From the IMG/VR virus record IMGVR_UViG_3300004241_000001, positions 32,001 to 96,000 of that record: a stretch of DNA of 64,000 nt; one strand, 5' to 3'. Within the stretch, counting starts at the first letter, position 1. Each line of letters begins with the position of its first letter. Origin of the DNA: a virus. Its lineage: Duplodnaviria > Caudoviricetes. This document shows positions 1,690-62,951 of this stretch, piece by piece. The notes under the pieces were generated by a model. The model was not told where the DNA came from. It saw nothing but the letters and a program-made list of their open reading frames with translations, and did not search any database. Made by a program: the position numbers and the translations under genes.

Positions 1690-1931
1690 CACGTTCGTTT
1701 CTGACTCAAAAAAGATTCGAATTGTGCAAGGATTCAATATGCGAATCCTTCTTCGGAAAGCCGGCAAGAGAATTAACAATAGACCAAGTAGTATTTTTAA
1801 AATGGACTTCGTTTTACGCTTGCTTAAATGAGAGAACTGAAAAAAGACCAGGCCCAGAATTAGTAGATAATGATTATGAATTAGATAAATGGCTTGATGA
1901 AGAATTAAAAAAGAAAACAAAAGAGTTTTAG
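1680..1931 (+). CDS. Tail assembly chaperone GT extension, reached by -1 frameshift
   Basis: -1 frame reads RKLARSFLTQKRFELCKDSICESFFGKPARELTIDQ...KKKTKEF*; no good independent start or SD. Confidence 0.8.
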   Translation, partial: RKLARSFLTQKRFELCKDSICESFFGKPARELTIDQVVFLKWTSFYACLNERTEKRPGPELVDNDYELDKWLDEELKKKTKEF

Positions 1932-1944
1932 AAAGGAAGATAAG

Positions 1945-4900
1945 ATGGCAAACGTTAACCAGAGTATTTCAATTGATTTCTTAATGACCGCGAAATCAAA
2001 TCCTGCTGGATTTAATGATATTATAAGAAAAATAGAAAATATACGCGGAGAAATGGCAGATTTTAGTGGAAGTATAGGTTCTGGTATGTCAAAACTAATG
2101 TCTTCCTTTTCTATGTTCCAAAAGGGGCTTGAGCCGAGAGCCTTTTTATCTTCAACTGAAAAGATAAAGCAAGAAATAAGAAGTTTATCAGCAGAATTGT
2201 CAAACCTTTCAAAAAAAGCAAAAGGGATGGACATTGATTTATCTGCCATAAGCAAAATGCAGGGGATTTTACGTTCAGCAAGGGCTAAAGTCCAATATGA
2301 AGAGGCTCAATTTTATAAAGATTTAAGGTCTCCGTTTGACTTGTCTCAGGCAAAATTTTCTGCTATCCAAATTCCCCAATCGCCTCTATCATATAAGGCC
2401 CCTACCGGGCGACAAGTTGAGAGACTAAAAGAATCACTAACTCCGCAACCATCTGGTCTTGATAAATTTATGTCATCCCAGGTTTTGGCAGTCGGAAGAC
2501 TTGCTCGTTATTATGCTTCATTCGAATTAATTAATGGATCAATAAATGCTATAAATACTGCAATGCAAGAGACAATAATGCTTCAAGATAAAATGCTTGA
2601 AGTTAAAAAGTTCTTGCCAGTTAACTCTGCCACAAAAGAACTTGAAAATAATGTATATGCCCTCGCCAAAGCATATGGCGTATCAGCCGAGACGGTTTTA
2701 AATTCGTACTCAGAATTTGCTCAACAGGGCATGAAAGCGAATCAAATACTTGATGCTACTAAAGCCGCTTTACTCGGCGTTAATGTTGCATCAATAGATT
2801 TCGCTGAATCAACAAAATTCCTTACGACCGCAACAAATGTTTGGGGTTACAGCTTATCTCAATCAACGACATTGTTCGATAAATTATCTAAGGTTCAGGC
2901 TATGTCGGCTGTAACTGCACAGGCAATGATTTCAGCTATACAAAAAACTGGTTCAATTGCTCATGATGTTGGCGTTTCAATGGATGAACTTCTTGGATAT
3001 ATCGCCGCAATAACAGAGAAAACTCAACAATCTGGTGAAGTTACTGGTAACGCTTTAAAGACAATGTTCGAAAGATTATTACGTTCTGATAGTATAAGAA
3101 AATTAGAAGCAATGGATCCACTTAAAGGTATAACTTTTAGAAATATCCAAACTGGAGAACTTGAAAAAGCAGGAGTTATTTTATCGCAGATAGCTGGCAA
3201 ATGGAAAGATTTAACTGACATTGAAAGAAAGAATATTGGTGAAGTTATTGCTGGTGGTAGACAAATAAATACATTTACCGCTTTAATGTCAAACTTTGAC
3301 TCGGCTGTTAAATTAACTGGTGAATCTTTAAATTCTATGGGGTTTGCTCAACAACAGAATCAAACAGAGATGCAAAAATTCACTAAAAATGCACAAATAC
3401 TTAAAAATGTATTTTTAGAGTTGACAACTGATGCATTAACTCCTTTTATGGTAGCTACAAATCTATCTATAAATATTTTAGGCCAGTTTGGATCTAGTGT
3501 TATGCCTATAGCCAAAGCTGGTGTATCTGGATTTGGAGCGGCAGTTATGGTAGTTGCAACTATGGCTATACCAACTCTAATAAGAAGCATTATAGCGTCA
3601 GGTGGAGTTCTTGGAACATTTTTACAAACTATGGGTAATGCTGCTTTAGTTACCAAAGGTCTTGGAGCAGTTTTATCAGGCCCGGCAGGTATAGCATTTG
3701 CGATTGGAAGTGCAATATCTGGATTTTTACTATATAACAGTAGCGTTCAAGAATCTAAAGAAAAAACAGAAGATTTAAATAAAGAATTAGCCAAAACTGC
3801 CGATTCATTAAATAAATTATCAAAGGGGTTTTCTGCCAAAGAATTTACTGAAAGTATCCTTGGTGGAATGACATCAGAGCAATTAGCTAAAATAATAGAA
3901 CTGAATCCTGCCATAGAGTCTATAATAAGCTATGGAGAAAAAGGCCCATATATAAAATCTGGGAGACAAGACTTAGCCAGAAAAATGTTCGTTGAGGCTA
4001 CAAAGCAAACAATACAGCAAAAAGCTGAAGGTGGAGTTACTTTTGAAAGTTATGTGAAAGATGTTGGTTTAACTAAAGATCAATTAAGTGCAACGAGAGT
4101 GCAAGAAGAATTTAATAAACTTCTGAAAGAGTCTGGAGATTTACAGAAGGAAATTACAGGATATCTTTCTCGTTCAACGTTCCTTTCTGATTCCGAATTG
4201 AAAACTCTTGATTTAAAAAAGCAAAAACAAAAAGAAATAAACGGATTGCTTGCACAATTTGAATATTTGGCAAAAGCCTCGGCTGGGAGTTCCGAATTAT
4301 CATTACAAAATGCAATAGAAGCAGCCCAGCAAATTGCAAAATTATTTTTCCAAGATAAACCCACTCAAATTTCTCCTATTTCTGATTCTCAAGAAAAACT
4401 TGAGGCACAAAGGGCAGTAATAGAAGAAATTGGTATAGAAATGGAAAAAGGATTATTTACCGCCCAACAAAAAAATAAAGAATTTGATATTGAAAATGAA
4501 CTTTTAGAAAATCTAAAGTCTCAACAATTTGAACTTGGGGCAAAAGAAATTGAACTAAGAGAACAAGTAAATAAAGGTATAGATGGAGCAAAAGATAAAT
4601 ATGATGAAGTAATTAAGAAAAATGAAATTGTAAAATCATTAATTGGAGACCAAAAAGATATTTTACAAAGGCTTTTGGATTTACTTAATCAAGACTATTT
4701 TATTAATGTAAGATTTAATATGCCTCAAGGAATACCATTACCAGGTTTTATTCCGATCGGTGGAGAAGGGGCTGTTTCATCTGCTAATTTAAATAAAACA
4801 GCACAAGAAGCAAAAGCTAGAGAGACAATTGCAAACAAAGAAATATTAAAAACAACAAACGATATACTTTCAGCTCAAAACTCAATAAACGCATTAGAAA

Positions 4901-6984
4901 ATAAGCATATAAAAATAAAAGAGAATGATGCGAAAAGTACCGCTACGAATAATATAAAGATTGGGAATGAAAAAGCAAAACTAGTAAAATTAGAACAAGA
5001 TTTCTCAAATTTATCAAAGATTGCTTCGAAAGATCAAGTAGAAAAATCTAAAATTGCTATTGAACAAAATAAAATAGAAAACCAGATGAAATTAAAAACT
5101 GCCAAAGAGGTAGGGAAAATAGATAGGGCAGGTCAAAAAACTGTTGAAGATAAGGCTCATATTGAAGCATTAAGAAAAGTTCATGAAATTGAAGCGCAAA
5201 TATCTCTTACCAAACAGTTCCAATCATATTGGGAAAGTAAATTAGAAGATAGTTATTTGCTTCGCTACGATCGTGAAACTGAAGCTCTACAGATACAAAT
5301 TGACAATAATAAAAATATCCTTGATAGTGTTAAAGGACTTAACGAAGAGGATAGAAATCGCTATAACGAAAAGATAAAAGAATTAAACACAGAACTTGAC
5401 GCTCGCAAAAAAAATCGAGAAGAAGCAATAAAGATAAATGAAGAAGAAAAAAGAGCGAAAGACTTTAAACGCAGTTTAGGAAAAGCTGATGAACAATTTT
5501 CATTTAGGCAAGAATTAAATGCTATTGGTTTCTCTGGCAGATATGGAATAACTCCAGAAGAGCAAGCGGCATTTAATATTCAACAACAGTACGAATCAGT
5601 TTTATTTGAAAAAGAAAAAGCAAAAATGATATATCAAGAAAAATATAGGATAACTCTTGATTCGATAATAGCAAAGCAAAAGACACAAAAAGACTTCTCT
5701 ATGGAAATGGCAAAGCAACAGGCTATTCAATTAACATTACAGTCAGAGGAAGTTCAAAATGCCGATGAAGCAGTAATAAAGCAGCAGCAGAAACTTGAAA
5801 TACTTTATAGGCAAACTGAACAACAAGAAAGACAAAGAGCATTTGCCGGCGTAGATGAAATCAAAGGAGTTATCTCTGGATTGTTTGACACATTCAATCC
5901 TATAACTATATACGAACAGCAAAAGGCCAAGGCAAAACAAATGTCTGAGGCATATGCTGAAATGGCTCAGGCTCAGTCAGCCGCCAATACTGCTGCAAGA
6001 GATGTTGCAAGTGCCGAGGCAACTGGAAATATTGACAAAATAAATTCTGCAAGAGAAAAATATAACCAAACATTAAACCAAATCGAAGAAGTAAAGAAAA
6101 AAATGCAGGATATAAATTCAGAAACGAACAAATGGGCAGATGCTTTAAAGAGTATAGGAAATATATTGTTCAAAAAAATAGCAGACCAAGTTACTGATAT
6201 ATTCATAAAGAAAACTGGTATCGCAGACATGTTTGCTAATTTATTTCTTGGAATAGGCGGACTTGGAGGCAAACAACAAACTCAAAGCGCTATGTTTGGA
6301 GGCGGTGCCGCAGGAATAACTACCGCTATGGCTGGAGCAATGGCATTTCCATCAATGGCTGGCATGGGTGGCGGGGCAGGGTTTATATCAGGTGGCAATC
6401 AAGCTATAATAAACGTCATGGCGCAAAAACAGCAAGGGCTTGGTGGCATGATGAGCCCTATGATGGGAACTTCAACTGGTCTTGGCAAATGGCTTAACAA
6501 ACCATTAGACAAATGGGGCAGCACAGGAATGGGCTATCTCTCATCTGGTCTTATGGGTTATGGGTTGGGTCAAGCCATAGGTTCAAAAGGCGGCGGAGCA
6601 TTAGCCGGTGGACTGATGGGGTTTTTAACGGCAGGCCCAATAGGTGGGCTTCTTGGTGCAATAGGTGGATTTTTTGGTGGAGGCAAGGACGAAGAGCCAG
6701 CTCCACCTCCAGTAAAAGAAAGAGAATTTTATAGCACTCAGAAGAACGTCGATGCCTTAGATAGAAATACTGCTGCTTTAATGAAACTTTCAGAAGGAGT
6801 ATTTAATGCTCCATCTACATTTGAAATGCCAAGGCTTGACGCAAAAAGTAATATATCTCAAGTTATAAACGTTTATGTTGGCCCTGGCTCTAACTCTAAA
6901 AATATATCTTCTGGTGTTTCTGAGGCAGTTTATAAAGCTAATATGGCTACATTTGGAACTAAAACATCGAATGTTGTAGGATAG
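1945..6984 (+). CDS. Tail tape measure protein (TP901-like core)
   Basis: 1679 aa; helical TMP core (VSMDELLGYIAAITEKTQQSGEVTGNALKTMFERL), hydrophobic segments, long coiled coils, Gly-rich C-terminus. Confidence 0.93.
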   Translation: MANVNQSISIDFLMTAKSNPAGFNDIIRKIENIRGEMADFSGSIGSGMSKLMSSFSMFQKGLEPRAFLSSTEKIKQEIRSLSAELSNLSKKAKGMDIDLSAISKMQGILRSARAKVQYEEAQFYKDLRSPFDLSQAKFSAIQIPQSPLSYKAPTGRQVERLKESLTPQPSGLDKFMSSQVLAVGRLARYYASFELINGSINAINTAMQETIMLQDKMLEVKKFLPVNSATKELENNVYALAKAYGVSAETVLNSYSEFAQQGMKANQILDATKAALLGVNVASIDFAESTKFLTTATNVWGYSLSQSTTLFDKLSKVQAMSAVTAQAMISAIQKTGSIAHDVGVSMDELLGYIAAITEKTQQSGEVTGNALKTMFERLLRSDSIRKLEAMDPLKGITFRNIQTGELEKAGVILSQIAGKWKDLTDIERKNIGEVIAGGRQINTFTALMSNFDSAVKLTGESLNSMGFAQQQNQTEMQKFTKNAQILKNVFLELTTDALTPFMVATNLSINILGQFGSSVMPIAKAGVSGFGAAVMVVATMAIPTLIRSIIASGGVLGTFLQTMGNAALVTKGLGAVLSGPAGIAFAIGSAISGFLLYNSSVQESKEKTEDLNKELAKTADSLNKLSKGFSAKEFTESILGGMTSEQLAKIIELNPAIESIISYGEKGPYIKSGRQDLARKMFVEATKQTIQQKAEGGVTFESYVKDVGLTKDQLSATRVQEEFNKLLKESGDLQKEITGYLSRSTFLSDSELKTLDLKKQKQKEINGLLAQFEYLAKASAGSSELSLQNAIEAAQQIAKLFFQDKPTQISPISDSQEKLEAQRAVIEEIGIEMEKGLFTAQQKNKEFDIENELLENLKSQQFELGAKEIELREQVNKGIDGAKDKYDEVIKKNEIVKSLIGDQKDILQRLLDLLNQDYFINVRFNMPQGIPLPGFIPIGGEGAVSSANLNKTAQEAKARETIANKEILKTTNDILSAQNSINALENKHIKIKENDAKSTATNNIKIGNEKAKLVKLEQDFSNLSKIASKDQVEKSKIAIEQNKIENQMKLKTAKEVGKIDRAGQKTVEDKAHIEALRKVHEIEAQISLTKQFQSYWESKLEDSYLLRYDRETEALQIQIDNNKNILDSVKGLNEEDRNRYNEKIKELNTELDARKKNREEAIKINEEEKRAKDFKRSLGKADEQFSFRQELNAIGFSGRYGITPEEQAAFNIQQQYESVLFEKEKAKMIYQEKYRITLDSIIAKQKTQKDFSMEMAKQQAIQLTLQSEEVQNADEAVIKQQQKLEILYRQTEQQERQRAFAGVDEIKGVISGLFDTFNPITIYEQQKAKAKQMSEAYAEMAQAQSAANTAARDVASAEATGNIDKINSAREKYNQTLNQIEEVKKKMQDINSETNKWADALKSIGNILFKKIADQVTDIFIKKTGIADMFANLFLGIGGLGGKQQTQSAMFGGGAAGITTAMAGAMAFPSMAGMGGGAGFISGGNQAIINVMAQKQQGLGGMMSPMMGTSTGLGKWLNKPLDKWGSTGMGYLSSGLMGYGLGQAIGSKGGGALAGGLMGFLTAGPIGGLLGAIGGFFGGGKDEEPAPPPVKEREFYSTQKNVDALDRNTAALMKLSEGVFNAPSTFEMPRLDAKSNISQVINVYVGPGSNSKNISSGVSEAVYKANMATFGTKTSNVVG

Positions 6985-6992: not shown

Positions 6993-7406
6993 ATGGCAAG
7001 CAAAACAAATTATAAATTATACAAATCATCTCTTACTCCTACGAAAATTGATATAGGGATTTCATCTTACGAAATAAAGACTCAAGATTATGGCAAGTTA
7101 GAACTAGGAAGAGGAATTAGAGTTTTTATAAAAAAATACTCCTCTTCCGGGGAAATACGAAAGAATGACACTTTAATTTTAAAATGGGATTTTGTTCCTG
7201 AAAATTCAATTACATTTTCAAAAATACAGTCTTTAAGCAATGGTGATGAAGTAACTTTTATTGCCTCTGGAAATATAAATATGTCAATTACTGGTGAATT
7301 GATAGATATAGTTTCAAAAAGAAAATCAGGGATAATATTAAAAAACAATATCATGACAAGAGAAATATCAATTCAAATATGCGTTAAGACTGGAAGTATA
7401 AACTAA
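6993..7406 (+). CDS. Putative distal tail / tail-tip protein
   Basis: Small beta-rich ORF directly after the tape measure gene; synteny only. Confidence 0.45.
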   Translation: MASKTNYKLYKSSLTPTKIDIGISSYEIKTQDYGKLELGRGIRVFIKKYSSSGEIRKNDTLILKWDFVPENSITFSKIQSLSNGDEVTFIASGNINMSITGELIDIVSKRKSGIILKNNIMTREISIQICVKTGSIN

Positions 7407-7416
7407 GGAGAAAAAT

Positions 7417-7773
7417 ATGGCGTGGCAAATAAACGGAGTGACACTTGATTATGGCCCAAGTTTTCAAGATGATTTTACATATGTTGATGACAAACCCATA
7501 GAATTGACGTTTCCATCAAAAAGTATCGATAATGATTATATTTATTTAAGGAATTATGACGAATCAAAAACTATGTCATGGGATAGAGTTACATCGAGTT
7601 TGAAGACGAAATTAGTAAATTTACCTTTATTTACAAATATATCTTTGTATGATAATATATCGACTAATAATTATACTATTCAAATATTGGATAGAAAGAT
7701 TATTCCATATAAAACATTTGAAAACTCTGAAGTTTTATGGTCTGCTACTTTAAAAATAAAAGTTATTAGTTAG
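7417..7773 (+). CDS. Putative distal tail / tail-tip protein
   Basis: AAGGAG SD; MAWQINGVTL start; synteny. Confidence 0.5.
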   Translation: MAWQINGVTLDYGPSFQDDFTYVDDKPIELTFPSKSIDNDYIYLRNYDESKTMSWDRVTSSLKTKLVNLPLFTNISLYDNISTNNYTIQILDRKIIPYKTFENSEVLWSATLKIKVIS

Positions 7774-7786
7774 GATTGGTGGAAAA

Positions 7787-10700
7787 GTGGATAATTTTAT
7801 ATATCAAACAGTTAATGATAATGTATCTGGAAAATCTGGCATTGCCTCATCTTGCTTTTATTGCGAAATATTTCAAGGTGGTCTATATGATTTTCATGCA
7901 AAAAATAAGACGACATTCTCTCCTAATAATGGATATGATATTATTACTGCCACAAAAATGAGAGGAGAAACGGAAGTCTCATATTCTGTCGAAAGATCAG
8001 ATGTATCGTTATGGACGAAATTTTCTCCAATAAGTTTCCAAAAAAACTTTTCAGTTGGCCAGTCTAAAACTATAAATTTTACATTGCCTTACAATATGTT
8101 CTCTTATAATATGTCAACGGGCATATTTACTGGTAATAATGATTTAACAAATTTTAACTTTACACTAAGTAAAGGGTATTTGGTAAGGCTTTATTCTGGA
8201 TTTTTTTCAGATGATAATACTGCTGCGATATATCAAGATGACAATGGGCAACACACAGAAAGACAGTTTACAGGTGTTATAACTGATATTCAAGTTTCCG
8301 AAGATGATGGAACATTGACTATTGCCGCTTCGGATTATTCTGTAATATTCTTAAACCAATTAAATTATAATTATCCTGATATTGTTTCTTATAGAGATGC
8401 CGCAGAAGATACAGAAGACGTAATAGTTGGTGGATCAACTTATAAATCTCCGATAAGAATTCAACCAGATAATTTATTCGCTGATATCGCAAATCAACAA
8501 TTTATTCCAGCATATGATAATTGGAAGGTCATAGATGCCATAAAGGATATTTGTATAAAAAGTAATTTTCCTGTCGAAAGAATTGCTTTTGGATTCATGA
8601 ATAGCGATAAAATAAGACTTGGAAAATCAAAAGAATATCCATTTATGAAAACTCAGTCAAAATATATTCAGACCACTGCAACAACAATTGAAGAAGTGGT
8701 AAAAATATCAGGCATCGATGCAGAATCATTAGATGATGCAAAATATAAATTTGATTTTGGAAAGAACCTATGGGATTGTTTAAGCACGATCTGCGAAGAT
8801 TTTGGCTTTAGAATGTTTTTCGATAAAGATGGAAAGTTAAATATTAAAGATGTTGGAGTTGGAACATTTTACCAAGATTTTACTGGAACAGAACTTCAAA
8901 TAATAGAGAATAATGTTTATGGTTGGACTGCTCAAGATTTAACCAATTATACAAATTGCACTATAAAAACTTCAATTTCTGGATATAAAATAGAAGCAAG
9001 ATTTATAAGTAAAGATGCTGAATTGCCAGCAACAACAGTTAGAGTATATTATAACAGTAATCTTTTAGCAACTGTGAATGTTAGAGCATTATCAAAATAT
9101 GATGCCGAAACGGTTACGCTATTTGAATCAGATAGTCCATCTGGATTATTTTATTTTCAATGCGCTGATACTGCATATTTAAACTGTTTGTATTATTACA
9201 CGCCTGAGCAACAAAATAATCCGATAATAACTCTTGATACGACAAAAAACGTAAAAATAACTCAATCAAATTTATCTAACCAAGAGATACGAAATCAGGT
9301 AATATCAATAGGGAAACCAAATGCATCAGAACCATTAATATCAAAATCAATAGATTTTACATCTATTTATGGCGGAGAAAATATCATATCTTCCTTAGAG
9401 TTTTCAAATGGGATAGACGCTGTTTCTGAATCAAAAGGTGACTTTCTTAGCAATGGAAAAAAAGACAAATATGAAAATGTTATATTTAATCCGTCATCTT
9501 TTACTATAAAATGTGATGGCAGTAAACCTTCCCCCAAAATATTAAAAATATATTTTAAACAGGACTCGACATATATAGGGAAGACGATAACCATAAACAC
9601 TACTGATTCAACTTTTTCTCAAACAATAAGTCAATATGATTTGACTAATTTTGGCATGTTTATAAATATTCCGACAATAACGACAAAAGTTAATGGCAAA
9701 TATGTCATACAACTTTCATGTGCGTCTGCTCAATCTTTTTATCTTTCTGAAGTAGAATGTTTTAATAATGATATCTCTTATAATTATGCCGGCTTTCTAA
9801 AAGAACTAATGATAGTAAAAGATAACGTAAGTGACAAATCATCAAATGATTGGGCGGCAAAGACACTTATTGAAACTCATAGAGGAAACTCGCATCAAGT
9901 TGAAGCAGAGGCTATAGGAATGCCGTTTTTAAATATTGGAGATTGCATTGATATATACGCTCCAGAATTAGGTTTTGCTCAAGATAAAAATTTTTATGTT
10001 ACTGGAATTTCTGATTCAGGAACCGACATATCTTATACCTCTAAAATATCTTTGTCTGCTATTCCTCCGGTTAAATCAATCCAATGGATGCCAGATATAG
10101 ACGAAACAAAATTTACAGGAGATATATATGATTTCACAATCCAGATAAAAGAAAAAGATAACGTGTCAGGCGATGCTAAAGGCATAATCGGTGGAGAATT
10201 TGAAAATATTTCTGGATTGCCTGGAGATATGAAAAATTTTAAACATGGAAGAATGATTGCCTATGACAGTGTAAATGGGAAGATATACGCTCTTGGAGGT
10301 TCCTCTACATGGATGACAGATACATGGATAACAAGAATGACTCCAACGAAATATTTTGCAATATACGATATTTCCACAAAAACATGGACTCAGGGTTCTA
10401 TGCCAGTTGCAACTTGTTTTGGATTTGCTTGTTGTTATAACGGAGATTTGTATGTATTCGGTGGCACTAATAATGCCGCAAATATTTTAAAATATACATT
10501 TTCAACATCTACTTGGTCTAACTATGGAAGCCTGTCTTTTAATTTTCAATATGGTGGAGCGGCAATAAAAGATAATATGGTTTATTTAATATCTGGATGG
10601 TCAGGGTCAAGTAGCGAATATCCTGTCGGCGGATGCTATTCGTATGATATCTTAACAAAAACTATTACAACTCTTGCAACATTAAATTCTTCAAATGGAT

Positions 10701-13093
10701 ATTTTTTAAACCAATGCTGCTTATCTTATGATGGAAATTATATTTATAGCCTTGGAGGCTCTTATAGAGATTATCAATTGCCCGGCCCCGATGAATACAC
10801 CTGGGATTGGCATAATAGGTTATATCTTTCTAGAAATCTCAATAGATACAATATATCATCAAATACGTGGGAATCTCTTACGGCTCCTTTAGTTGGTATT
10901 GCTGGAGGAACTTTACAAACAGATTCCACAGGTATATATGTATTTGGTGGGTATAGGGTTGATGGTTCAGGATTCTACTCCAGTAATTCAGCTCATAAAA
11001 TATATGATTATTCTACCGGATATGTTTTCGAGCCATATGGAGGAGTGCCTGAATCATTTGGAATATCTGGATGTATTTATGGTTCTAAATTTTTAATTGC
11101 CGGCGAAGGAGTTTATTCAATAGATTTAGTAAAAATGAAGGTAAGTCAGGCAATAGATATAAAACCAATAACTGACTACTGCTTATTTAGCTTCGCTACA
11201 ACAAAAAGAAGAAAGATATCTGTTTTAGTAAAACACCCATCAAAAAATGAAATTTATGCATGGCCTCTTGAAGAAACAATAATTGAGCCTGGAGTTTATA
11301 AAAGAGAAAATGGAATAAGATGGGATTTTGGTTTAGACTTTGAACAAAGATTTGGGGATTTTTGTGATAAAATATTTCTTTATCCAAATGACTCAGATGA
11401 TAATTATGTTTATTCGACAATCTATGAGGATTTGGAAATAACATCCGAATACGATCCTACGGTTACTCATAAAAGAACTCCTCCATTTTACATTGTTAGA
11501 CTTAATGTTAAACTGGATAAATATTTACTGAATACTCTTGGTTCGGCCACAATAAGTTCAGATATACAAATGGATGTTCCAATAATAACTCATTCTGATA
11601 TGTATAAAGATGGAGCGTTTAAACTTGCTATAGAAGATGTTTTCCCGTCTCAAGTGCAAGTTGGAGGCTCTGTCATAGCCCCATTATCAGTTAAAAAAAA
11701 TAATATAACATTAATTTTAAATGATATGGTTTATGTGGATGTTATTGTTCAAAGAAATGATGGCGCGAATGTCAATCAAATAACCCAATCTGTTGACGAG
11801 TATGGAAGATATCCTAACTCAGCCCAAAGAAATGTTATTACAGCAGCATTAATTGACGAAATAAAATGGGATTTGACGGATAGTAGCGGTATTTATGTAC
11901 CTATTAACTCTAAATATAAATTTAAAATCATAAATGCTTTTGGTGTTAATGGAGAGGCTGTTATTTTTACAACAGCCACAAGTGATAATATCCTTCCAAA
12001 TCCAATATTTAAACCAATATCTACAACAAATACTGTAACTACAACAAAACAATCATTAAATGGTTCTGTATCAAGTTCTACGTCAGTAGTGACTACAAAG
12101 ATAATGAAAGACTGGGTTTATAATGATTCTTTTGTTTCACTATTTGATATAACTCCTTCTAAATACTACTCATGGCAAGAATCTATTCAAGTTCCTAAAA
12201 CGTTACCGAATGGAACGGTAATTGGAAATACTACTACGATAATAACAAAAACATTAACAAATAAATCTTTTGGATATAACATAACAATGGATACAGACAA
12301 AGAAAGGGTTTCTACAACATTTGATCAGTTAGGAACTATTTCGTTTAAAAAAGAATTTAGTGGAAATACTTCAAATATCTTTGCCGGCGCTTTAATGGAT
12401 GTTGAGCTTGGAACAAATGATATTGAAAAAGTTACGTCGGAATATCTTAACGATTCTCCTCATGTAAAATCTACAAAGGCGTATATAGCCAATCCAGAAG
12501 TATCGCAAGATATCTATGTTAGTTTTGAATATTTGCTATATTCTCCTATAAGAACTGGATATCCAAGTGGAGAGTTAACTTTCGTAGATAAGAATGGCCA
12601 AACGGTAAGTTATGTTGATCTTTCGATTAGCGAAGCCATAAAAAAATACTGTTTGGCTCCAGTATTTTTTGTTGCTTATAAAACAGATAAATTATCCTAT
12701 AAAATAGTTAAATCAGATATGATAAAATTGACTCCAAGTAGTAATCCAGAAGGAACCATGTCTGTTGCAGGAACAAAATTTACAATACCAAAAGCTACAG
12801 ATTGTTCAGAAATAGATTTAATCGTAGGGGTTAAATTTGGAGATTCATTCAAATTGACAAGAACTTCAAACGACCCTCCTGGAAAACCATCGGGATATGT
12901 TGCAAATTTGTTTTCATCAGATCCAGAGCTATATTATTTTGTTGACTATGCTAAAACGCAATCATTTAATCCCGGGATAAATTTATATTTCGATAATTTT
13001 CAAACCATACTTGGAAGTGAATATCGAAAAATAACTTATTCTGAACAGCCAAAAGATAACGCAAAAACATCAGGAATATTCGAAGTAATATAA
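7787..13093 (+). CDS. Tail tip / baseplate hub protein with Kelch beta-propeller and FlgD-Ig-like domains
   Basis: Hub-like motifs (FTGVITDIQVSE, GFRMFFDKDGKLNI, GMPFLNIGDCIDI); about six Kelch repeats (IYALGG, LYVFGG, VYLISG, IYSLGG, IYVFGG with downstream W) at ~10240-11130. Confidence 0.75.
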   Translation: MDNFIYQTVNDNVSGKSGIASSCFYCEIFQGGLYDFHAKNKTTFSPNNGYDIITATKMRGETEVSYSVERSDVSLWTKFSPISFQKNFSVGQSKTINFTLPYNMFSYNMSTGIFTGNNDLTNFNFTLSKGYLVRLYSGFFSDDNTAAIYQDDNGQHTERQFTGVITDIQVSEDDGTLTIAASDYSVIFLNQLNYNYPDIVSYRDAAEDTEDVIVGGSTYKSPIRIQPDNLFADIANQQFIPAYDNWKVIDAIKDICIKSNFPVERIAFGFMNSDKIRLGKSKEYPFMKTQSKYIQTTATTIEEVVKISGIDAESLDDAKYKFDFGKNLWDCLSTICEDFGFRMFFDKDGKLNIKDVGVGTFYQDFTGTELQIIENNVYGWTAQDLTNYTNCTIKTSISGYKIEARFISKDAELPATTVRVYYNSNLLATVNVRALSKYDAETVTLFESDSPSGLFYFQCADTAYLNCLYYYTPEQQNNPIITLDTTKNVKITQSNLSNQEIRNQVISIGKPNASEPLISKSIDFTSIYGGENIISSLEFSNGIDAVSESKGDFLSNGKKDKYENVIFNPSSFTIKCDGSKPSPKILKIYFKQDSTYIGKTITINTTDSTFSQTISQYDLTNFGMFINIPTITTKVNGKYVIQLSCASAQSFYLSEVECFNNDISYNYAGFLKELMIVKDNVSDKSSNDWAAKTLIETHRGNSHQVEAEAIGMPFLNIGDCIDIYAPELGFAQDKNFYVTGISDSGTDISYTSKISLSAIPPVKSIQWMPDIDETKFTGDIYDFTIQIKEKDNVSGDAKGIIGGEFENISGLPGDMKNFKHGRMIAYDSVNGKIYALGGSSTWMTDTWITRMTPTKYFAIYDISTKTWTQGSMPVATCFGFACCYNGDLYVFGGTNNAANILKYTFSTSTWSNYGSLSFNFQYGGAAIKDNMVYLISGWSGSSSEYPVGGCYSYDILTKTITTLATLNSSNGYFLNQCCLSYDGNYIYSLGGSYRDYQLPGPDEYTWDWHNRLYLSRNLNRYNISSNTWESLTAPLVGIAGGTLQTDSTGIYVFGGYRVDGSGFYSSNSAHKIYDYSTGYVFEPYGGVPESFGISGCIYGSKFLIAGEGVYSIDLVKMKVSQAIDIKPITDYCLFSFATTKRRKISVLVKHPSKNEIYAWPLEETIIEPGVYKRENGIRWDFGLDFEQRFGDFCDKIFLYPNDSDDNYVYSTIYEDLEITSEYDPTVTHKRTPPFYIVRLNVKLDKYLLNTLGSATISSDIQMDVPIITHSDMYKDGAFKLAIEDVFPSQVQVGGSVIAPLSVKKNNITLILNDMVYVDVIVQRNDGANVNQITQSVDEYGRYPNSAQRNVITAALIDEIKWDLTDSSGIYVPINSKYKFKIINAFGVNGEAVIFTTATSDNILPNPIFKPISTTNTVTTTKQSLNGSVSSSTSVVTTKIMKDWVYNDSFVSLFDITPSKYYSWQESIQVPKTLPNGTVIGNTTTIITKTLTNKSFGYNITMDTDKERVSTTFDQLGTISFKKEFSGNTSNIFAGALMDVELGTNDIEKVTSEYLNDSPHVKSTKAYIANPEVSQDIYVSFEYLLYSPIRTGYPSGELTFVDKNGQTVSYVDLSISEAIKKYCLAPVFFVAYKTDKLSYKIVKSDMIKLTPSSNPEGTMSVAGTKFTIPKATDCSEIDLIVGVKFGDSFKLTRTSNDPPGKPSGYVANLFSSDPELYYFVDYAKTQSFNPGINLYFDNFQTILGSEYRKITYSEQPKDNAKTSGIFEVI

Positions 13094-37626: not shown

Positions 37627-38143
37627 TTATTTATCGCAAATAGCAGAAATTAAATCTTTTAAATCATTTTCTGCATATGAAAGCTCTTCATTAAGTTGGC
37701 AGATTTTTATTTCTAATACTTTTATATCTTTTTGTTTTTGGCTAAATAATTCATGCTGTTCATTACTAATTGTTTTTATAACTTTATAAGAGTTTGAGGT
37801 CGAGATCTCATAAAAAAATTTATCATAATACGAAGTTATATTTCCCGATTTAATTTCATATAGTTCTAAACAAATGTAGTCTCCACCATCATTTACAAGA
37901 TAATATTTAGAACCAAGTTTTAGAAATTCTTCTTTGATTAAAGTCTTATGAATTTTAAAATCAGGTGCTAGATTTAACCCCCTCTCTAATAGTTTTTTCG
38001 TCATACGAATTTACATTTATTTTAAGTAAGTTTTCTCCATTATCAGATATAGAATTTATTATTAATTTGTCTGTGTTTTTGTTATATATTGCTATACAGT
38101 TTATGTTATTTAATATCAATTCCTTGCATATAATATCTCCCAT
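37627..38143 (-). pseudogene. Paralog of 37105-37617 split by one extra G in a G5 run
   Basis: Removing one C from 37978-37982 fuses the two ORFs into IREGLNLAPD, co-linear with the paralog's IRQKLNLRPN. Confidence 0.75.
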
Positions 38144-38161: not shown

Positions 38162-38247
38162 AAAGCCGGCTGACGAATCAACGTCTGACACCGATCTCTT
38201 CCAGTTCAAAACCAGTTTGAACCTTTGATTAAAGTATCACCGGCCTT
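38162..38247 (-). ncRNA. Candidate structured RNA with a multi-stem junction and pseudoknot; family not recognised
   Basis: Stems AAGGCCGG/CCGGCUUU, UGAUAC/GUGUCA, GUUCAAA/UUUGAAC, GACG/CGUC; loop UUGAUU is complementary to AAUCAA. Confidence 0.5.
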
Positions 38248-42239: not shown

Positions 42240-42827
42240 TTATTTTTTGCCTTTCGCCGGCGCAATTGAAGCAGTTGTTTTATATCCACCTGAGCTTCCA
42301 AAACCTTTATGTGACGTTTCTTTAATATCTTTTACGACTTCTATATCAACCGGGAACGTCGGGAAGAATATTAATTGAGCAATCTTTTCTCCGGCTTCGA
42401 TTACCACCGGTTCGAACCCTGCGTTCTCAACAATAAGTCCATGTTCGGAGCGAAATGATTCATCGATAAGACCAATGCTGTTACATACTCTTATATGTTT
42501 TTTTAAACACAAACTGCTTCTTGGTAATAGCAGAGCAAGCGAGTTTTCAGGGTAAATTAATTTGATATTTAGTGGGATAATTACTTCTATCGGATTTTCT
42601 TCAATAACCTGATTTAATGAGTTCTGGCTAAGTCCGGCGAGTCTTGAATTATAATAATGCATTCTTGATAAGAATGACGGCTTTATTTCAACCGCTTCTC
42701 TTGCAAACAAATCCATTCCCGCGGCTAATACGTCCTTTCCATCGATTTTTGTTACGTTATAAAATGGCGTATCTATTTTCGGATTTATCTTTTCCATTAA
42801 CACCACCATTTTGTTTTTTGCTTCCAT
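42240..42827 (-). CDS. dut: Trimeric dUTPase
   Basis: AGMDL, PRSSL, GLIDESFRSE, EKIAQL, GFGSSG; likely start ATG 42827. Confidence 0.9.
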   Translation of the reverse strand: MEAKNKMVVLMEKINPKIDTPFYNVTKIDGKDVLAAGMDLFAREAVEIKPSFLSRMHYYNSRLAGLSQNSLNQVIEENPIEVIIPLNIKLIYPENSLALLLPRSSLCLKKHIRVCNSIGLIDESFRSEHGLIVENAGFEPVVIEAGEKIAQLIFFPTFPVDIEVVKDIKETSHKGFGSSGGYKTTASIAPAKGKK

Positions 42828-57795: not shown

Positions 57796-57813
57796 ATTAT
57801 TGCCTCCAATTAA

Positions 57814-57840
57814 AAAGACCGGCTTTCGCCGGCCTTAATT
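57814..57840. repeat. 27-bp direct repeat copy 1 (GAAA-loop hairpin / terminator)
   Basis: AAAGACCGGCTTTCGCCGGCCTTAATT, identical to 58805-58831. Confidence 0.9.
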
Positions 57841-58790
57841 TATAACTTTTTAGCTATTTCATATATCACATTTACTGTTACGCCATTTCCTGCTTGTTTA
57901 TAAAGCTGACTATCAGAATTGACCATTCTTGCTCTCTCAAAATATTCATCTGGAAATCCTTGAAGTCTAAAGCATTCTTTAGGAGTTAATCTGCGAATGC
58001 GTTTATTTTCTAAAATCCCAGTTCTTGCAGAATGATTGTCAAGTCCTTTATAGTATGTTGCATTAAGACAAGTAAAATTATTTCTTTTTATTATATTTCC
58101 ACGATTTATTGTGACTAAATAAAGTCCAGTTTTAGCTCCAAGACCTCCACCTAGCCCAATTAAGTTTTTAGAAATTCCATCTTCATCATAGACTCTTTCT
58201 GCCATTGTTCCTGGAATTAATTCTTTAAGTTTTCCATTAGTTTTTCCATCATTTCTTTCGAGAGGAAATATTTTTCGTCTACGCTCTCCTCTAAGATATG
58301 CGATAATAAACACTCTTTCTCTGTTTTGTGGCACTCCATAATTTTTTGAGTTGATAACACACCATTCGATCTGGTCATACCCTGCATCCCGAATTGCAAG
58401 CAAGATTGATCCGAATGTTCTTCCTTTGTCGTGGTTAAGAAGTCCTCTAACATTTTCCAAGAATAAAATTTTCGGTCGTTTTTCTTTTGCGAGTCGAAGT
58501 ACGTCAAAAATAACTGTTCCCCTTGTATCCTCAAAGCCTTGTCTTTTTCCGGCAATGGAGAAACTTTGGCAGCAAAATCCTCCGCACCAGATGTCGGCGT
58601 TTGGCAGATCCCTTGATTCAATTTTTGTAATGTCTTCTCCAAAATATTCATCCTCCTTTGGATTATGCATTGCTGTATAACTTTTATTAGCATACTTATC
58701 TATTTCTATATGTCCAACACATTCATGCCCTGCCATTTCTAGTCCTAAACGAAAACCTCCGATTCCAGAAAATATATCTAAAAATTTCAT
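57840..58790 (-). CDS. C5 cytosine DNA methyltransferase
   Basis: FSGIGG, GGFCCQSFS (PC motif variant), ENVRGL, PQNRERVF, RRLTPKECFRLQGFPD, QAGNGV. Confidence 0.95.
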   Translation of the reverse strand: MKFLDIFSGIGGFRLGLEMAGHECVGHIEIDKYANKSYTAMHNPKEDEYFGEDITKIESRDLPNADIWCGGFCCQSFSIAGKRQGFEDTRGTVIFDVLRLAKEKRPKILFLENVRGLLNHDKGRTFGSILLAIRDAGYDQIEWCVINSKNYGVPQNRERVFIIAYLRGERRRKIFPLERNDGKTNGKLKELIPGTMAERVYDEDGISKNLIGLGGGLGAKTGLYLVTINRGNIIKRNNFTCLNATYYKGLDNHSARTGILENKRIRRLTPKECFRLQGFPDEYFERARMVNSDSQLYKQAGNGVTVNVIYEIAKKL

Positions 58791-58804
58791 AACTCTCCTT
58801 ACTT

Positions 58805-58831
58805 AAAGACCGGCTTTCGCCGGCCTTAATT
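58805..58831. repeat. 27-bp direct repeat copy 2
   Basis: Identical to 57814-57840. Confidence 0.9.
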
Positions 58832-58832
58832 G

Positions 58833-61286
58833 CTATTTATTTTCTTTTATCCACTTTAGCATTGATTCAGTTCGTTTAAACCTCGACATTACCATTCTAC
58901 CATTTACCTTTATCATTGCCGGCAATTCATCGATATCATAATACCTTGCCAACGCCTCACCTTTTGGCTCTGACGTATCAACTACTTCATATTTGATGTC
59001 AATATTTTTAAGCCTTTCTTTTGTTTCTTCGCATTTCTGACATCCAGGCTTCGAGAAGAAATATATTTTTGTTTTTTCGGGATAGTAAGTTTTATTTTCT
59101 CCGTTCGGATCATAAACTGAAATAGCTTCTACTTTTTTTCTATCCCTGAGTTCTGCGATTTTGCCTTTTGTCCATCCAGAAATCTTTGAAAAATATCCGG
59201 TTATGCGAGTAATCATATAGGTATTCTTTGAACCGCAATTTGGACATTCATCTCTAAAACCTCTGTGTGTTGTATGACAGTCTTCGCAAGTTGTAAAATC
59301 AGGGCTAAACGCTATTTGAGAAGCCTTTGTTGATTTTAAAGTTTCCAATGTTAACTCTTTAATCGCTCTCCAATCAGGAAGTTTTTCTCCGAGCCATACA
59401 TGGATTATTGAGCCGGCTTCAACCATAGGAGAGAATTTTGATTGCTTAACTATACGTTCAAATATATCGATATCAGCATCATAAGGGATATGAACGCTGT
59501 TAGTATAATACCTAAACGACTCGTCTTTTAAATTGCCGCGAACATATTGTTTTGCTTGTTCTGGATAATATTTAAGGTCAAGTGTGGCTAATCTTTGAGA
59601 GCATCCTTCTGCCGGTGTTTCTTCAAGAATACAATATAAACCATATTTCTCTGATTCTTCTTTCATTACCTTTTTCATAAACGAAATTATTTCAAGTCCT
59701 TTTAGAAAAGATTCTTCGCTTTCATGTAATTGAAATCCTGTAAGACATTGGATCATTTCGTTTAGTCCGACCATTCCAAGTAGGAACTTTGCTTCTTCTC
59801 TACGAAGGTATGGTTTTCCATCAAGACCAGAGTTTAAGAATTTTGTAAAATTATTTTCATCGAGACGTTTACAAAAGTAATCATATTTTTCTTTATGGGC
59901 TTTCATTGCAACACAAATCACTTCTTTTAAATTATCAAATACTTCTGTTTCATTTTTTGATTTATAAGCAACCCTTGGAAGATTTATTGTTACGTTTTGC
60001 CATGCAGAAAATCTTGTTTCTTCTGGATGTTCCATAGTTCTTTTTATTTCCTCTTCGCTTAACTTTATACTGAGCCGACAGCATTGTGAGATTTGGGCTG
60101 CCCCACGATCAAACAATATATAAACCGAACCTCTTTTTGCATTTATTTGACAAGCATAATCAAATAAAGCGTCATTTGAATAATCTTTGCTATCGCTTAG
60201 ATGAAGAAGTATTTTAGGGAAATTAAAGTTTGCTCCATTTCTATCGCCCTCGTCAAGAACTTGAAGTACAGCAAATAGAAACGATCTTGCTTCTTTTTCG
60301 TAATCTTTATATGTAACTCCATCGATATATTTACCGCCAGGGCCAACAACAGGAGTATTTCTATAATGATCAGGAATTTCGAGATACATATTGAAATCAG
60401 AGAATACCAATTGGCCCCCTCTGGAACTTGAAAGTTGCGAGAAACTAAATATCATATGTTGGGCCATTTGTTTTATTTGTTCATTAGAAGATCCTTCAAA
60501 GAATGGAGCCATGAATATGTTTACTGCGTCATAGCCAATAGCCCCACTGAATACGCCCTGTAAGTAGTTGGCAAAGCAAGACATATGACTTATTAAAGAT
60601 AAAGCATGTTTTGCTGGTGAAGACTCCACTTGCATTCCTGGAAATTTTATTCCATTCTTTTTAATATATTCGATTGAATTACCGCTACAATAAGGTCTGA
60701 CGCCAGTAAAATCGCTGTCATGTATGTGAATATCCCCTATTTTATGTGCTTTTGAAATATTAGAAGAGTGTAATGTTCTTAAAGCATATGATTTTAATAT
60801 ATTCCCTGCAAGAGTTAAGTTTATGCTTTCAGGAGAAAATCCCGTATTGCTATTTTCTTTATTGTGATCGGTAAGAACTGATTCGATGGTATCTAACGAA
60901 GTTATTATATTATAATACTGTTCAAGCTGTTTATTGTATCCTTTTTCAAACAAAATATTATTTACGATTTCTCTTATAAAACCAGAACTTACTGTTTTTT
61001 GACCACTGCTCATAAGTCTTAGTTCAACTATTTTTGCTATTTCAAATGACTCTTCTTCGGTTAAATCACAATGAAGCATAAGAGAATTTATAATTCTCTT
61101 CCGGTCGAAGTCATAGAAATCATTGTCGGTATTTGATTCAACTTGCATCTGGAAAGCGGTTGAATTTTTAATAGATCTTCTTTTCTTTCTGACCTTTGGT
61201 ATTATTGTATTTCCTTGAAATAAAATATCCTCTGTGTGGTTTTTAACGTCTGTCATTGGTTGCATTTGTGGATTAACATCTTCCAT
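58833..61286 (-). CDS. nrdD: Class III anaerobic ribonucleotide reductase with ATP cone and a fused C-terminal glutaredoxin-like domain
   Basis: ATP cone (FDRKRIINSL...IREIV), GDIHIHD, QCCRL, ETPAE, YYTNS, Zn ribbon, RITGY glycyl-radical motif, then FSKPGCQKC. Confidence 0.93.
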   Translation of the reverse strand: MEDVNPQMQPMTDVKNHTEDILFQGNTIIPKVRKKRRSIKNSTAFQMQVESNTDNDFYDFDRKRIINSLMLHCDLTEEESFEIAKIVELRLMSSGQKTVSSGFIREIVNNILFEKGYNKQLEQYYNIITSLDTIESVLTDHNKENSNTGFSPESINLTLAGNILKSYALRTLHSSNISKAHKIGDIHIHDSDFTGVRPYCSGNSIEYIKKNGIKFPGMQVESSPAKHALSLISHMSCFANYLQGVFSGAIGYDAVNIFMAPFFEGSSNEQIKQMAQHMIFSFSQLSSSRGGQLVFSDFNMYLEIPDHYRNTPVVGPGGKYIDGVTYKDYEKEARSFLFAVLQVLDEGDRNGANFNFPKILLHLSDSKDYSNDALFDYACQINAKRGSVYILFDRGAAQISQCCRLSIKLSEEEIKRTMEHPEETRFSAWQNVTINLPRVAYKSKNETEVFDNLKEVICVAMKAHKEKYDYFCKRLDENNFTKFLNSGLDGKPYLRREEAKFLLGMVGLNEMIQCLTGFQLHESEESFLKGLEIISFMKKVMKEESEKYGLYCILEETPAEGCSQRLATLDLKYYPEQAKQYVRGNLKDESFRYYTNSVHIPYDADIDIFERIVKQSKFSPMVEAGSIIHVWLGEKLPDWRAIKELTLETLKSTKASQIAFSPDFTTCEDCHTTHRGFRDECPNCGSKNTYMITRITGYFSKISGWTKGKIAELRDRKKVEAISVYDPNGENKTYYPEKTKIYFFSKPGCQKCEETKERLKNIDIKYEVVDTSEPKGEALARYYDIDELPAMIKVNGRMVMSRFKRTESMLKWIKENK

Positions 61287-61301
61287 AAAATCATTCCTTT
61301 C

Positions 61302-62951
61302 TTATAATGAAAAAACCGCACAATCCTCTCGATTAATTCTATCTTTAAGTTTTGTTCCTGCGATTATTGAAATAACTTCCTCTTTGGCAAGAGTATCGCA
61401 TAGGAGTTTTAGATTAGAATCGTCAAGACAGTCTGCGCGGTCAACGATGATGAAATTATACTTGCTTACCTTTGCAATAGCAAACTGGATTGAAATAGAA
61501 GATATTAATTTTTCTGCTTCTGATAGCATTTTGCTCGTCTTATCATTGATTTTCAAGCTGAATTTTGGTTCGGTTAAAACATCAAATTTTACACCAAAGT
61601 TTGAAGAAAATTTATTTATATCATCGATAAAAGATTGAGCGCCAGATTTAACTATTTTTGATTTAATTCCATCTTTACCGAAGATGCTTACGAGTCTTTC
61701 AAGTTGTTCTTTTCTTTTTAAAGATTTTTCTCTTGAGTTAAGTTGAAATTCAAGTTGAGAGTTTAAGTTTGCTATATCTCTTGAAACTATTTTGAGATTA
61801 TTTAATTTGAATACCTCTGATATAATCGATTCATTTCTTCTGTCTATATCTGAGTTAAATATCTCAATCTCTTTATTTTCAATTTCTATCGATTTTATTT
61901 CAGACTCTAATTTATCTCTTAGTTCTCTTATTTTTATATCTTTTTCTAAGCCGGCATCTTGTTCTGCCTTCTGTTTTTGTTCAAATAGTTGTTTTCCTCT
62001 TACCCTTAAAGAATTATTTTCAGCAACCAATGAATCAATATACTTCTTTATCTCCTCTGCTGATTGACATTGGATTGACGAAACAAAAGGGCATGAGCCA
62101 GAAAATTCTTTTGCTTGGTCAATTTTTACTTTATTTTCTAATCCTTTTTTATTAATATCTTCAAGCTCTTTTTTAAGTTCCTCTGGAAATTTAGATATGA
62201 CAGAAGAGTTCTTTATAATTGATAACTGATTTTCCATCTCTCTTGCAGAATTATATCCTTTTAGTTCTTTATATTTTTCTTTCTTGCTATTAAGTTCTAA
62301 TATTTTGTTTTCAATATCAGTTGGAACCTCTGGAAGTTCTGATAGTTTCGTTGTTATCTGCTTTATATTGTCATCAGCGGTATTTATATATCTTGTGCAA
62401 TTAGTTCTTTCTGCGTAAAATTTATCATATAAGACTTGAATATCTTTTGTTGATATTTGACTTGGAACATCTGCCTTTATATCATCTTGTATTTCGATAT
62501 AATCTGCCGGGTTAAATGACGAATTGCTTAAGTAATCAACAAGTATTTCATATTGCTGTTCTGGCGAAAGGTTAAAGAAATTATATCCATTGCAAAGAAA
62601 ATTTATTACAGCTGATTTAATGCCAAGTTCTTCAATTGGATCTTTCTTTTTTCTTGTATCAATTTTTATTACTCCATTTGGGGTTATAAGATTGCTTGGA
62701 TTGGCACTTCTTGAAAGTATTTCAAAGTTGTGGAAGTTTGATAAAGTTGCAGTTGGAGTTTTGTTCGTTCCATTAGGAATAAAATCGCTTATATCTTTAT
62801 CCTGTGCCTTTCCTGATAGGATAAATTCTATTGCCGTCCGAATAGTCGTTTTACCTTTTGCATTTGTGTAAGAGGTCACTATATTGAGTCCTGGTTTAAA
62901 ATCCATTTCCTTTTCTGAGAACATTCCAAAATCTTTTAATTTTAATTTCAT
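61302..62951 (-). CDS. Rad50/SbcC-like SMC ATPase
   Basis: LKDFGMF, NAKGKTT Walker A, coiled coils around a CPF..C hook, LSEAEK signature, IIVDRADCLD Walker B; likely start ATG 62951. Confidence 0.85.
   Translation of the reverse strand: MKLKLKDFGMFSEKEMDFKPGLNIVTSYTNAKGKTTIRTAIEFILSGKAQDKDISDFIPNGTNKTPTATLSNFHNFEILSRSANPSNLITPNGVIKIDTRKKKDPIEELGIKSAVINFLCNGYNFFNLSPEQQYEILVDYLSNSSFNPADYIEIQDDIKADVPSQISTKDIQVLYDKFYAERTNCTRYINTADDNIKQITTKLSELPEVPTDIENKILELNSKKEKYKELKGYNSAREMENQLSIIKNSSVISKFPEELKKELEDINKKGLENKVKIDQAKEFSGSCPFVSSIQCQSAEEIKKYIDSLVAENNSLRVRGKQLFEQKQKAEQDAGLEKDIKIRELRDKLESEIKSIEIENKEIEIFNSDIDRRNESIISEVFKLNNLKIVSRDIANLNSQLEFQLNSREKSLKRKEQLERLVSIFGKDGIKSKIVKSGAQSFIDDINKFSSNFGVKFDVLTEPKFSLKINDKTSKMLSEAEKLISSISIQFAIAKVSKYNFIIVDRADCLDDSNLKLLCDTLAKEEVISIIAGTKLKDRINREDCAVFSL

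Follow-up and report, generated by a model that had tools for sequence, protein, structure and literature searches.

A HIP-like iterated GCCGGC palindrome in an AT-rich phage lineage, and its independence from the phage C5-methyltransferase

The hexamer GCCGGC is iterated throughout the genomes of a lineage of AT-rich phages in the manner of the highly iterated palindromes (HIPs) of cyanobacteria, and its enrichment is independent of the C5 cytosine DNA methyltransferase (C5-MTase) that the phage genome studied here encodes. The DNA analyzed (the window) is a stretch of 64,000 nucleotides corresponding to bases 32001-96000 of the 115,414-bp IMG/VR virus record IMGVR_UViG_3300004241_000001 (G000; 31.4% GC; JGI 3300004151, Ga0066602_10000025), which is classed as complete and has terminal repeats. 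An initial annotation of the window had noted the repeated GCCGGC sites and linked them to the methylase. It described the palindrome correctly but probably assigned it to the wrong gene. In this phage lineage the excess is both genuine and strong, and a directional process acting on DNA in the host cell is the explanation that we tentatively favor.

One word raised 13-fold, with sister phages at zero copies, indicates a strong sequence-specific force acting on phage DNA, and no published explanation for such a pattern in phages was found. The cause of the cyanobacterial iterated palindromes has been argued for more than 20 years without a tractable system; closely related all-or-none phage pairs, such as G004 and G001 described below, offer a small comparative system in which to find the responsible factor. 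The case also cautions against assigning such sites to a methylase simply because the genome encodes one: here that gene is probably not responsible.

GCCGGC is strongly over-represented in a palindrome-poor genome

Avoidance of palindromes is classically illustrated by phages, and Rocha et al. reportedly described such avoidance of restriction sites in both phages and bacteria in 2001. A further account of restriction-site avoidance in phages and bacteria is given by Rusinov et al. 2015 (PMC4687349). G000 obeys this rule strongly: 13 six-base palindromes have no copies at all, including TCCGGA (11.2 expected), GAGCTC (11.5), TACGTA (11.5), CTGCAG (10.0) and GGCGCC, and about twenty more occur at less than 0.25 of expectation. 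GCCGGC is the exception, departing from expectation 13-fold in the opposite direction, whereas the relatives G001-G003 purge this word too.

All 24 positions at which GCCGGC had been reported in the window carry the exact word (24/24), whereas 100 dinucleotide-preserving shuffles yield 1.83 copies on average and never more than 6. Across the whole of G000 there are 36 copies where a first-order Markov model expects 2.7, an excess of about 13-fold at one copy per 3.2 kb, and GCCGGC has the highest first-order z-score (25.4) of all 4096 hexamers. The reversed control word, CGGCCG, does not occur in G000.

Composition and codon usage do not account for the excess

A compositional, codon-usage or assembly artefact has next to no chance of explaining these counts. 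The strongest argument in its favor comes from a fourth-order Markov model, which predicts 22.7 of the 36 sites by way of enriched GCCGG pentamers. However, such a model absorbs most of the excess by construction, because the GCCGG pentamer is itself enriched (110 copies versus 28.8 expected); the correction therefore just shifts the excess to five letters, where it is already present. Assembly error is also contradicted, since the phage was recovered in independent JGI, Logan and ENA assemblies and the sites checked there are present.

Codon preference was addressed by shuffling synonymous codons while keeping proteins and codon usage fixed. The shuffled genomes contain 3.97±1.90 coding GCCGGC sites and none of the 300 shuffles exceeds 10, whereas 33 are observed. 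The signal thus stays after the codon correction that the initial annotation had called for, and its claim that the sites fall in all three reading frames and exceed what codon bias can provide holds as well. The coding sites of G000 comprise 20 in the frame GCC-GGC (Ala-Gly), 10 in the frame xxG-CCG-GCx (x-Pro-Ala) and 3 in the frame xGC-CGG-Cxx; another three sites are intergenic, two of them in hairpin stems. Among the Ala-Gly pairs of G000, 20 of 113 are encoded by GCC-GGC where 2.6 are expected, while none of the 77 Gly-Ala pairs uses GGC-GCC. The rare codons CCG and CGG are also enlisted to form the word. This use of rare codons, together with the asymmetry between Ala-Gly and Gly-Ala, indicates a force on DNA rather than a protein or codon preference, and the codon shuffle effectively refutes the artefact explanation.

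The word is close to all-or-none among related phages

Loci related to G000 were gathered through terminase homologues and fall into several clades. GCCGGC is the first- or second-ranked hexamer in every enriched group. Enrichment is 13- to 26-fold in the window's own clade (L085, L121; terminase identity 90-98%), 5- to 10-fold in a sister clade (L078, L086-L095; 41%), 5-fold in L096 (39%) and 3-fold in L081 (28%), a locus of 47% GC. The own-clade fragment L121 has 7 sites in 13.6 kb. Longer records give similar densities, with 27 sites in 56 kb for G005 (one per 2.1 kb), 12 in 36 kb for G004 (one per 3.0 kb) and 7 in 17 kb for G006, and a 48-kb replication region of the sister clade has 14 sites versus 2.7 expected. 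Other relatives lack the word entirely: G001 (49 kb), G002 (73 kb), G003 (59 kb) and L082 together contain none, where about 10 are expected in total, a figure partly extrapolated from sampled loci. The trait is therefore labile, close to all-or-none among relatives and patchy on the terminase tree.

The sharpest case is the pair G004 and G001, which are sisters on the terminase tree and align over 26 kb at ~75% DNA identity. G004 contains 12 GCCGGC sites versus 2.5 expected, whereas G001 contains 0 versus 2.4 expected; at the positions of the G004 sites, G001 has related words such as ACCGGC, ACCAGC and GCCAGC. The longest segment of G004 unmatched in G001 lies inside a 2296-aa presumed tail protein, for which no family search was run. 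The two phages also differ in the palindromes that they avoid: AGCGCT is seen 2 times versus 8.1 expected in G004 and 12 versus 8.0 in G001, and GCTAGC 0 times versus 8.8 in G004 and 5 versus 9.6 in G001. These contrasts between the sisters, in a large presumed tail protein and in the spectrum of avoided palindromes, suggest a host-like determinant; the trait appears to follow differences resembling those between hosts or defence environments.

A second iterated word, GGCGCC, varies at the strain level within the sister clade. It is enriched in L088, L089 and L090 (6 copies in 11.8 kb of L090) and has 0 copies in the closely related L078.

The excess is independent of the phage methylase

The initial annotation had suggested as one possibility that the phage's own C5-MTase methylates GCCGGC and that methylation and repair together create the sites. 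The enzyme in question is a full-length, 316-aa orphan methylase encoded on the minus strand at 57840-58790 (PF00145, E = 4e-80), the sole C5-MTase in G000, standing between NrdD and a GP88-family gene. It is bracketed by an exact 26-bp direct repeat starting at 57814 and 58805, each copy of which is a GAAA-loop terminator hairpin with GCCGGC. Copy 1 (57814-57839, minus strand) is located downstream of the methylase, and on the minus strand a T run follows its GAAA-loop stem; copy 2 (58805-58830, minus strand) is located between NrdD and the methylase. The word does occur in both of these flanking hairpins, as had been stated. Apart from these two hairpins, no extended sequence is common to the GCCGGC sites, and a longer repeat or mobile element was thus rejected as their source.

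The presence of GCCGGC in the hairpins beside the gene is consistent with a link to the methylase, as are its retention in L121, which is itself strongly enriched (7 sites in 13.6 kb), and the lack of any C5-MTase in the searched 30-55% of the genome of each of three non-enriched relatives. However, enrichment is also found where no such gene was detected. The sister clade was walked outward from the terminase in 10-kb steps, and with record G005 ~98 of ~118 kb (~83%) was covered; no PF00145 or tblastn match to a C5-MTase was detected in this portion, in a clade enriched 5- to 10-fold. Its NrdD-NrdG junction, the position syntenic to that of the G000 methylase, is occupied by two small genes instead of a methylase, and the GP88 homologue is located elsewhere. 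G004, with 12 sites in 36 kb, likewise has no C5-MTase in the portion searched. Over the portion covered, the sister-clade result is essentially the observation that had been named in advance as refuting a link to the enzyme.

The converse comparison gives the same result. Methylase homologues were found at 67 viral loci (37-67% identical) and 15 bacterial loci (26-67% identity across the whole set), and none of these loci has a GCCGGC excess. In unrelated gut viral contigs with such homologues (L023, L041, L044, L050, L051), the top palindrome is CTGCAG, CGGCCG or ACCGGT (z 5-7).

Other features of the gene also fit poorly with a causal role. The complete G000 genome has no match to Vsr (PF03852), to an HhH-GPD glycosylase (PF00730) or to an N4/N6 methylase, so that the vsr search proposed in the initial annotation came back negative on the phage side. 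Motif IV of the G000 enzyme reads CCQ (GGFCCQ) instead of the canonical PCQ, while the L121 copy (L121:3682-4524; 83.5% amino acid identity, ~91% DNA identity) has the canonical GGFPCQ and is ~32 residues shorter, the missing residues lying between the target-recognition region and motif IX. Either enzyme may have altered or reduced activity. Matches in the PDB are to M.HhaI and M.HaeIII, and the target-recognition region aligns weakly with that of M.HhaI, so specificity is not assignable from homology. The methylase looks recently imported, because its closest relatives are found on Bacillota plasmid records and in an unrelated temperate phage. Homologues from plasmids, genomes and phages all bear generic methylase names. 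The cassette was seen only in the window's own clade. No restriction gene was found beside the homologue in the neighborhood inspected, that of the temperate phage. Neither neighbor of the G000 methylase is a restriction gene either, although no genome-wide search for NgoMIV- or NaeI-type nuclease families was made.

Taken together, these results show that the enrichment does not depend on the phage methylase, and the model in which this enzyme creates the sites is unlikely. We propose instead that the methylase is a later-acquired, terminator-flanked cassette that would be unnecessary for the enrichment, although it may protect GCCGGC sites.

Site density is maintained while individual positions turn over

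Turnover was assessed by comparing G000 with four diverged strain fragments (L077, L085, L121 and L122) at 82-91% DNA identity. GCCGGC is retained at 9 of 18 sites, where the retention of other GC-rich 6-mers across these alignments predicts 7.9. This retention is uneven, ranging from 7/8 sites against L121 to 0/5 against L077. The gains and losses that could be traced are synonymous and affect third codon positions, as in the series GCC-GGC to GCT-GGC to GCT-GGT, or in GTG-CCG to GTA-CCA. What is maintained is therefore the density of sites and not their individual positions.

The initial annotation had also raised the possibility of a packaging or protein-binding signal. No flank consensus was found over ±12 bp around the GCCGGC sites, and their spacing in G000 is near random (coefficient of variation 0.82). 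With retention at the background rate and only density kept, the sites are unlikely to act as a fixed operator, as an origin or in packaging. A pac or cos site or an origin would have one or a few clustered copies in conserved positions, whereas the 36 copies are scattered roughly at random, and any position-specific binding signal is likewise unlikely.

Comparison with known iterated palindromes

The HIP-like description given in the initial annotation is appropriate: GCCGGC is a short palindrome many-fold over expectation (36 versus 2.7), it occurs in all three frames and in non-coding DNA (20/3/10 coding sites plus 3), and the genome is otherwise palindrome-poor. The density of roughly one site per kb that characterizes HIPs is not reached. 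HIP1 (GCGATCGC) is a cyanobacterial 8-mer that exceeds expectation 15- to 300-fold and is associated with orphan methylases for GATC and CGATCG (Elhai 2015, PMC4390886; Xu et al. 2018, PMC5861425). GCCGGC resembles it in being a short GC-rich palindrome far over expectation, and for HIP1 too the cause is debated between function and biased repair. GCCGGC differs from it in length and in that tie to orphan methylases, and G000 contains no copy of HIP1.

A closer parallel is provided by the alternate HIPs of Elhai 2015, which include rCCGGy with GCCGGC in Oscillatoria PCC 10802, GGCGCC in Calothrix PCC 7103 and GCsGC in Cyanothece PCC 7822 (PMC4390886). Each of these has a cognate m5C methylase in the same genome, and the explanation proposed is a ratchet of mismatch repair directed by G-m5C (PMC4390886). 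The phage pattern is similar in several respects: the word is GCCGGC, with GGCGCC as well in the sister clade; the excess is many-fold and extends over coding and non-coding DNA; and it comes and goes between close relatives. Frequent variation at the outer positions is reported for HIPs, and in the sister clade about half of the polymorphic sites (~7 of 14) vary at position 1 or 6 (TCCGGC, GCCGGT, GCCGGA); in G000, outer variants are raised 2.1- to 2.6-fold, but GCTGGC (2.1-fold) and GGCGGC (3.8-fold) are raised too. In contrast to the alternate HIPs, the carrier is a phage and not a cell, enrichment occurs with no methylase in ~83% of the sister-clade genome, the density is one site per 2-3 kb versus about one per kb, and unenriched relatives purge the word fully.

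The initial annotation had also invoked Dcm/Vsr-type repair. In very-short-patch repair, an m5C methylase acts with a T:G-specific nuclease and raises CCWGG-type words in E. coli, although the effect is small; Bhagwat and McClelland are said to have described this skewing of words in 1992. Such a mechanism predicts depletion of the T-containing variants. In G000, the deamination variants are undepleted: GCTGGC/GCCAGC occurs 26 times versus 12.3 expected (2.1-fold) and GTCGGC/GCCGAC 9 times versus 7.4 (1.2-fold), and the phage has no vsr gene. The many other one-off variants reported earlier were borne out in part: GCCGGT/ACCGGC is mildly raised (2.1-fold), whereas TCCGGC is not (0.9-fold). CCCGGC is raised 2.6-fold and GGCGGC 3.8-fold.

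Possible explanations: a host process or selection for site density

Our favored reading, which is tentative, is that GCCGGC is a HIP-like palindrome written by a biased process at the DNA level, probably methylation-linked repair in the host. The involvement of methylation, its supply by the host and the writing of sites by repair bias instead of selection are all inferred. A directional process would keep writing GCCGGC into synonymous codon positions and non-coding hairpins genome-wide, and single copies would afterwards decay at an ordinary rate. The most likely engine would be cytosine methylation coupled to biased mismatch correction in the host cell, a ratchet like that proposed for the cyanobacterial alternate HIPs GCCGGC/rCCGGy and GGCGCC. 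Phages replicating in hosts with such machinery would accumulate GCCGGC. In other hosts the word is probably targeted by restriction, and close relatives replicating there would purge it. A host process is favored because the force acts on DNA, is indifferent to position, produces an all-or-none pattern, co-enriches GGCGCC in some strains and operates independently of the phage methylase. If the word is imposed by the host, GCCGGC could serve as a sequence-only clue to the host or defence environment of uncultured phages.

Several observations weigh against this reading. Among 400 Clostridia genomes scanned, GCCGGC:CGGCCG ratios reach ~20, but sampled stretches of the best eight show at most 3.4-fold enrichment, none comparable to that of the phage. 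The phage is replicated by its own DnaE replisome. The undepleted T-variants are contrary to the classical Vsr mechanism, and arithmetic on the counts gives no clear excess of one-sided GCCGG intermediates over two-sided sites. Finally, Elhai's model (PMC4390886) relies on a hypothetical repair enzyme directed by G-m5C.

The Clostridia scan also showed that iterated CCGG-core words exist in Bacillota chromosomes. In G408 (L147, C1:1-20000) TCCGGA occurs 66 times versus 12.3 expected, and in G187 (L148, C1:1-20000) GCCGGT occurs 13 times versus 1.4 and ACCGGT 12 times versus 1.9.

Some of the same data are explained better by selection for site density, in which a protein reads GCCGGC (in a Chi-like, recombination or replication-restart, nucleoid or packaging-condensation role) and needs a copy every few kb while positions turn over. 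The T-variant data and the few fixed sites fit this explanation better than the host-repair model: T-variants are undepleted and a mild rise is seen for several one-off words, the pattern that decay of functional sites would leave, three sites are fixed in all sister-clade strains (L089 positions 3078, 10286 and 19387), and 7 of 8 are in common with L121. Density is also kept across terminases only 28-41% identical and from 31 to 47% GC, which suggests a long-lived benefit, and the phage-encoded SbcC/SMC-like and PD-(D/E)XK nucleases are possible partners. However, overall retention is at the background rate, no candidate reader protein is specifically common to the enriched phages, and sisters with nearly the same gene set have 0 sites, which is hard to square with a function inherent in the phage. 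An AP2-domain protein was rejected as a common reader, its matches being weak and limited to G000. Known Chi sites, which RecBCD/AddAB recognizes, are asymmetric and orientation-dependent and no palindromic Chi is known, whereas GCCGGC is palindromic, so that an orientation bias is undefined. Overall, selection for density is somewhat less likely than the host process.

A replication or recombination quirk of large AT-rich phages, such as template switching or biased gene conversion, might favor a GC-only palindrome without any methylation, and all enriched clades do carry their own DnaE/DnaB replisome. Yet palindromes are generally depleted in G000 and GCCGGC alone is raised, sisters with the same core genes hold 12 and 0 sites, and to our knowledge no polymerase error mode yields one specific 6-bp word. 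Such an intrinsic quirk is improbable.

A broader reading, which we regard as rather unlikely, is that an undescribed, biased word-writing repair or conversion system, encoded by host or phage and independent of any phage methylase, acts on AT-rich phages from unrelated families. It would raise GCCGGC, and GGCGCC in some strains, to high density, whereas relatives beyond its reach would purge the word. If true, iterated palindromes would record a widespread DNA-handling enzyme system and provide a signature of host or defence environment readable from phage sequence alone.

Locations of the sites in the window

The first site (1760-1765) lies in the gap between the open reading frames (ORFs) at 1057-1689 and 1945-6984, where only a doubtful 81-aa minus-strand ORF overlaps it. 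The sites that follow, up to 22500, are on the plus strand in structural genes or among them. A GCC-GGC (Ala-Gly) site is present at 5845-5850 in the tape-measure gene (1945-6984), and three more Ala-Gly sites (9788-9793, 11099-11104 and 12383-12388) are found in a gene for a 1768-aa protein without a family match, among the tail genes. A 1999-aa tail-fibre-like gene has an Ala-Gly site at 15177-15182 and a GGC-CGG-CCA (Gly-Arg-Pro) site at 16984-16989, the latter inside the 10-bp palindrome TGGCCGGCCA. Four sites are found in an 1140-aa tail gene: AGC-CGG-CTT (Ser-Arg-Leu) at 19269-19274, Ala-Gly at 20429-20434 and 21155-21160, and GCG-CCG-GCA (Ala-Pro-Ala) at 22495-22500.

Apart from an intergenic site at 38165-38170, located in a GC-richer gap upstream of the gene at 37627-38004, the remaining sites are on the minus strand. 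These include ATG-CCG-GCT (Met-Pro-Ala) at 34022-34027 in a 616-aa gene without an assigned family, GCG-CCG-GCG (Ala-Pro-Ala) at 42256-42261 in a 212-aa gene and an Ala-Gly site at 44300-44305 in the NAD-dependent DNA ligase gene. Kept in strain L121 are the sites at 48322-48327 (Ala-Gly, 140-aa gene), 54183-54188 (Met-Pro-Ala) and 54938-54943 (Ala-Gly), both in the DEAD-box helicase gene, 56285-56290 (Trp-Pro-Ala, radical-SAM, NrdG-like gene) and 59412-59417 (Ala-Gly, NrdD). The hairpin sites start at 57828, in terminator-like repeat copy 1, and at 58819, in copy 2. A second NrdD site, at 58918-58923 (Leu-Pro-Ala), reads GCAGGA in L121, and the Ala-Gly site at 61950-61955 in the SbcC/SMC-like gene reads TTCAGC in L122.

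NrdD is itself interrupted by ~1.35 kb in L121 (436-1784) and in L122 (7897-9245), and this insert, which is absent from G000, may represent an intron or intein or the insertion of a homing endonuclease.

Host clues and gene content

G000 has a single tRNA, a tRNA-Gln, and ~60-70% of its genes have a Shine-Dalgarno sequence. A candidate lysin gives a weak, sub-threshold match to a peptidoglycan-binding domain, and with the Shine-Dalgarno features this points to a bacterial host. A cyanobacterial host of the HIP1 type is unlikely given the zero HIP1 copies in G000 and its usage of Shine-Dalgarno sequences.

The phage looks like a siphovirus, as judged from a 1679-aa tape-measure protein and very large tail proteins. 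Its replication and nucleotide genes include those for DnaE, a PD-(D/E)XK nuclease, HU, an SbcC-like ATPase, NrdD/NrdG, a DEAD-box helicase, DnaG and an NAD-dependent ligase. Near-identical copies of G000 were found in four freshwater-metagenome runs, possibly the source samples; wastewater and groundwater matches of small share were left out of account. No close cultured relative was found, the terminase having one weak match in the phage collection; the best-ranked DnaE match among cultured phages is Methanobacterium virus PhiF1 (32% identity; L075:5971-10077, minus strand, outside the window). The lineage-specific 616-aa protein has no relatives among the viral contigs.

In the sister-clade phage L129, two genes of the TnpB / IS605 OrfB type, with a Cas12f-like nuclease domain (5124-6323 and 7143-8285), are located among early genes upstream of the terminase. 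A GT4 glycosyltransferase block adjoins the head and neck genes in L077, L078, L081 and L083, and by ORF layout also at ~24.6-28.1 kb in G000; in L078 the block includes an epimerase. This block may have a role in virion glycosylation.

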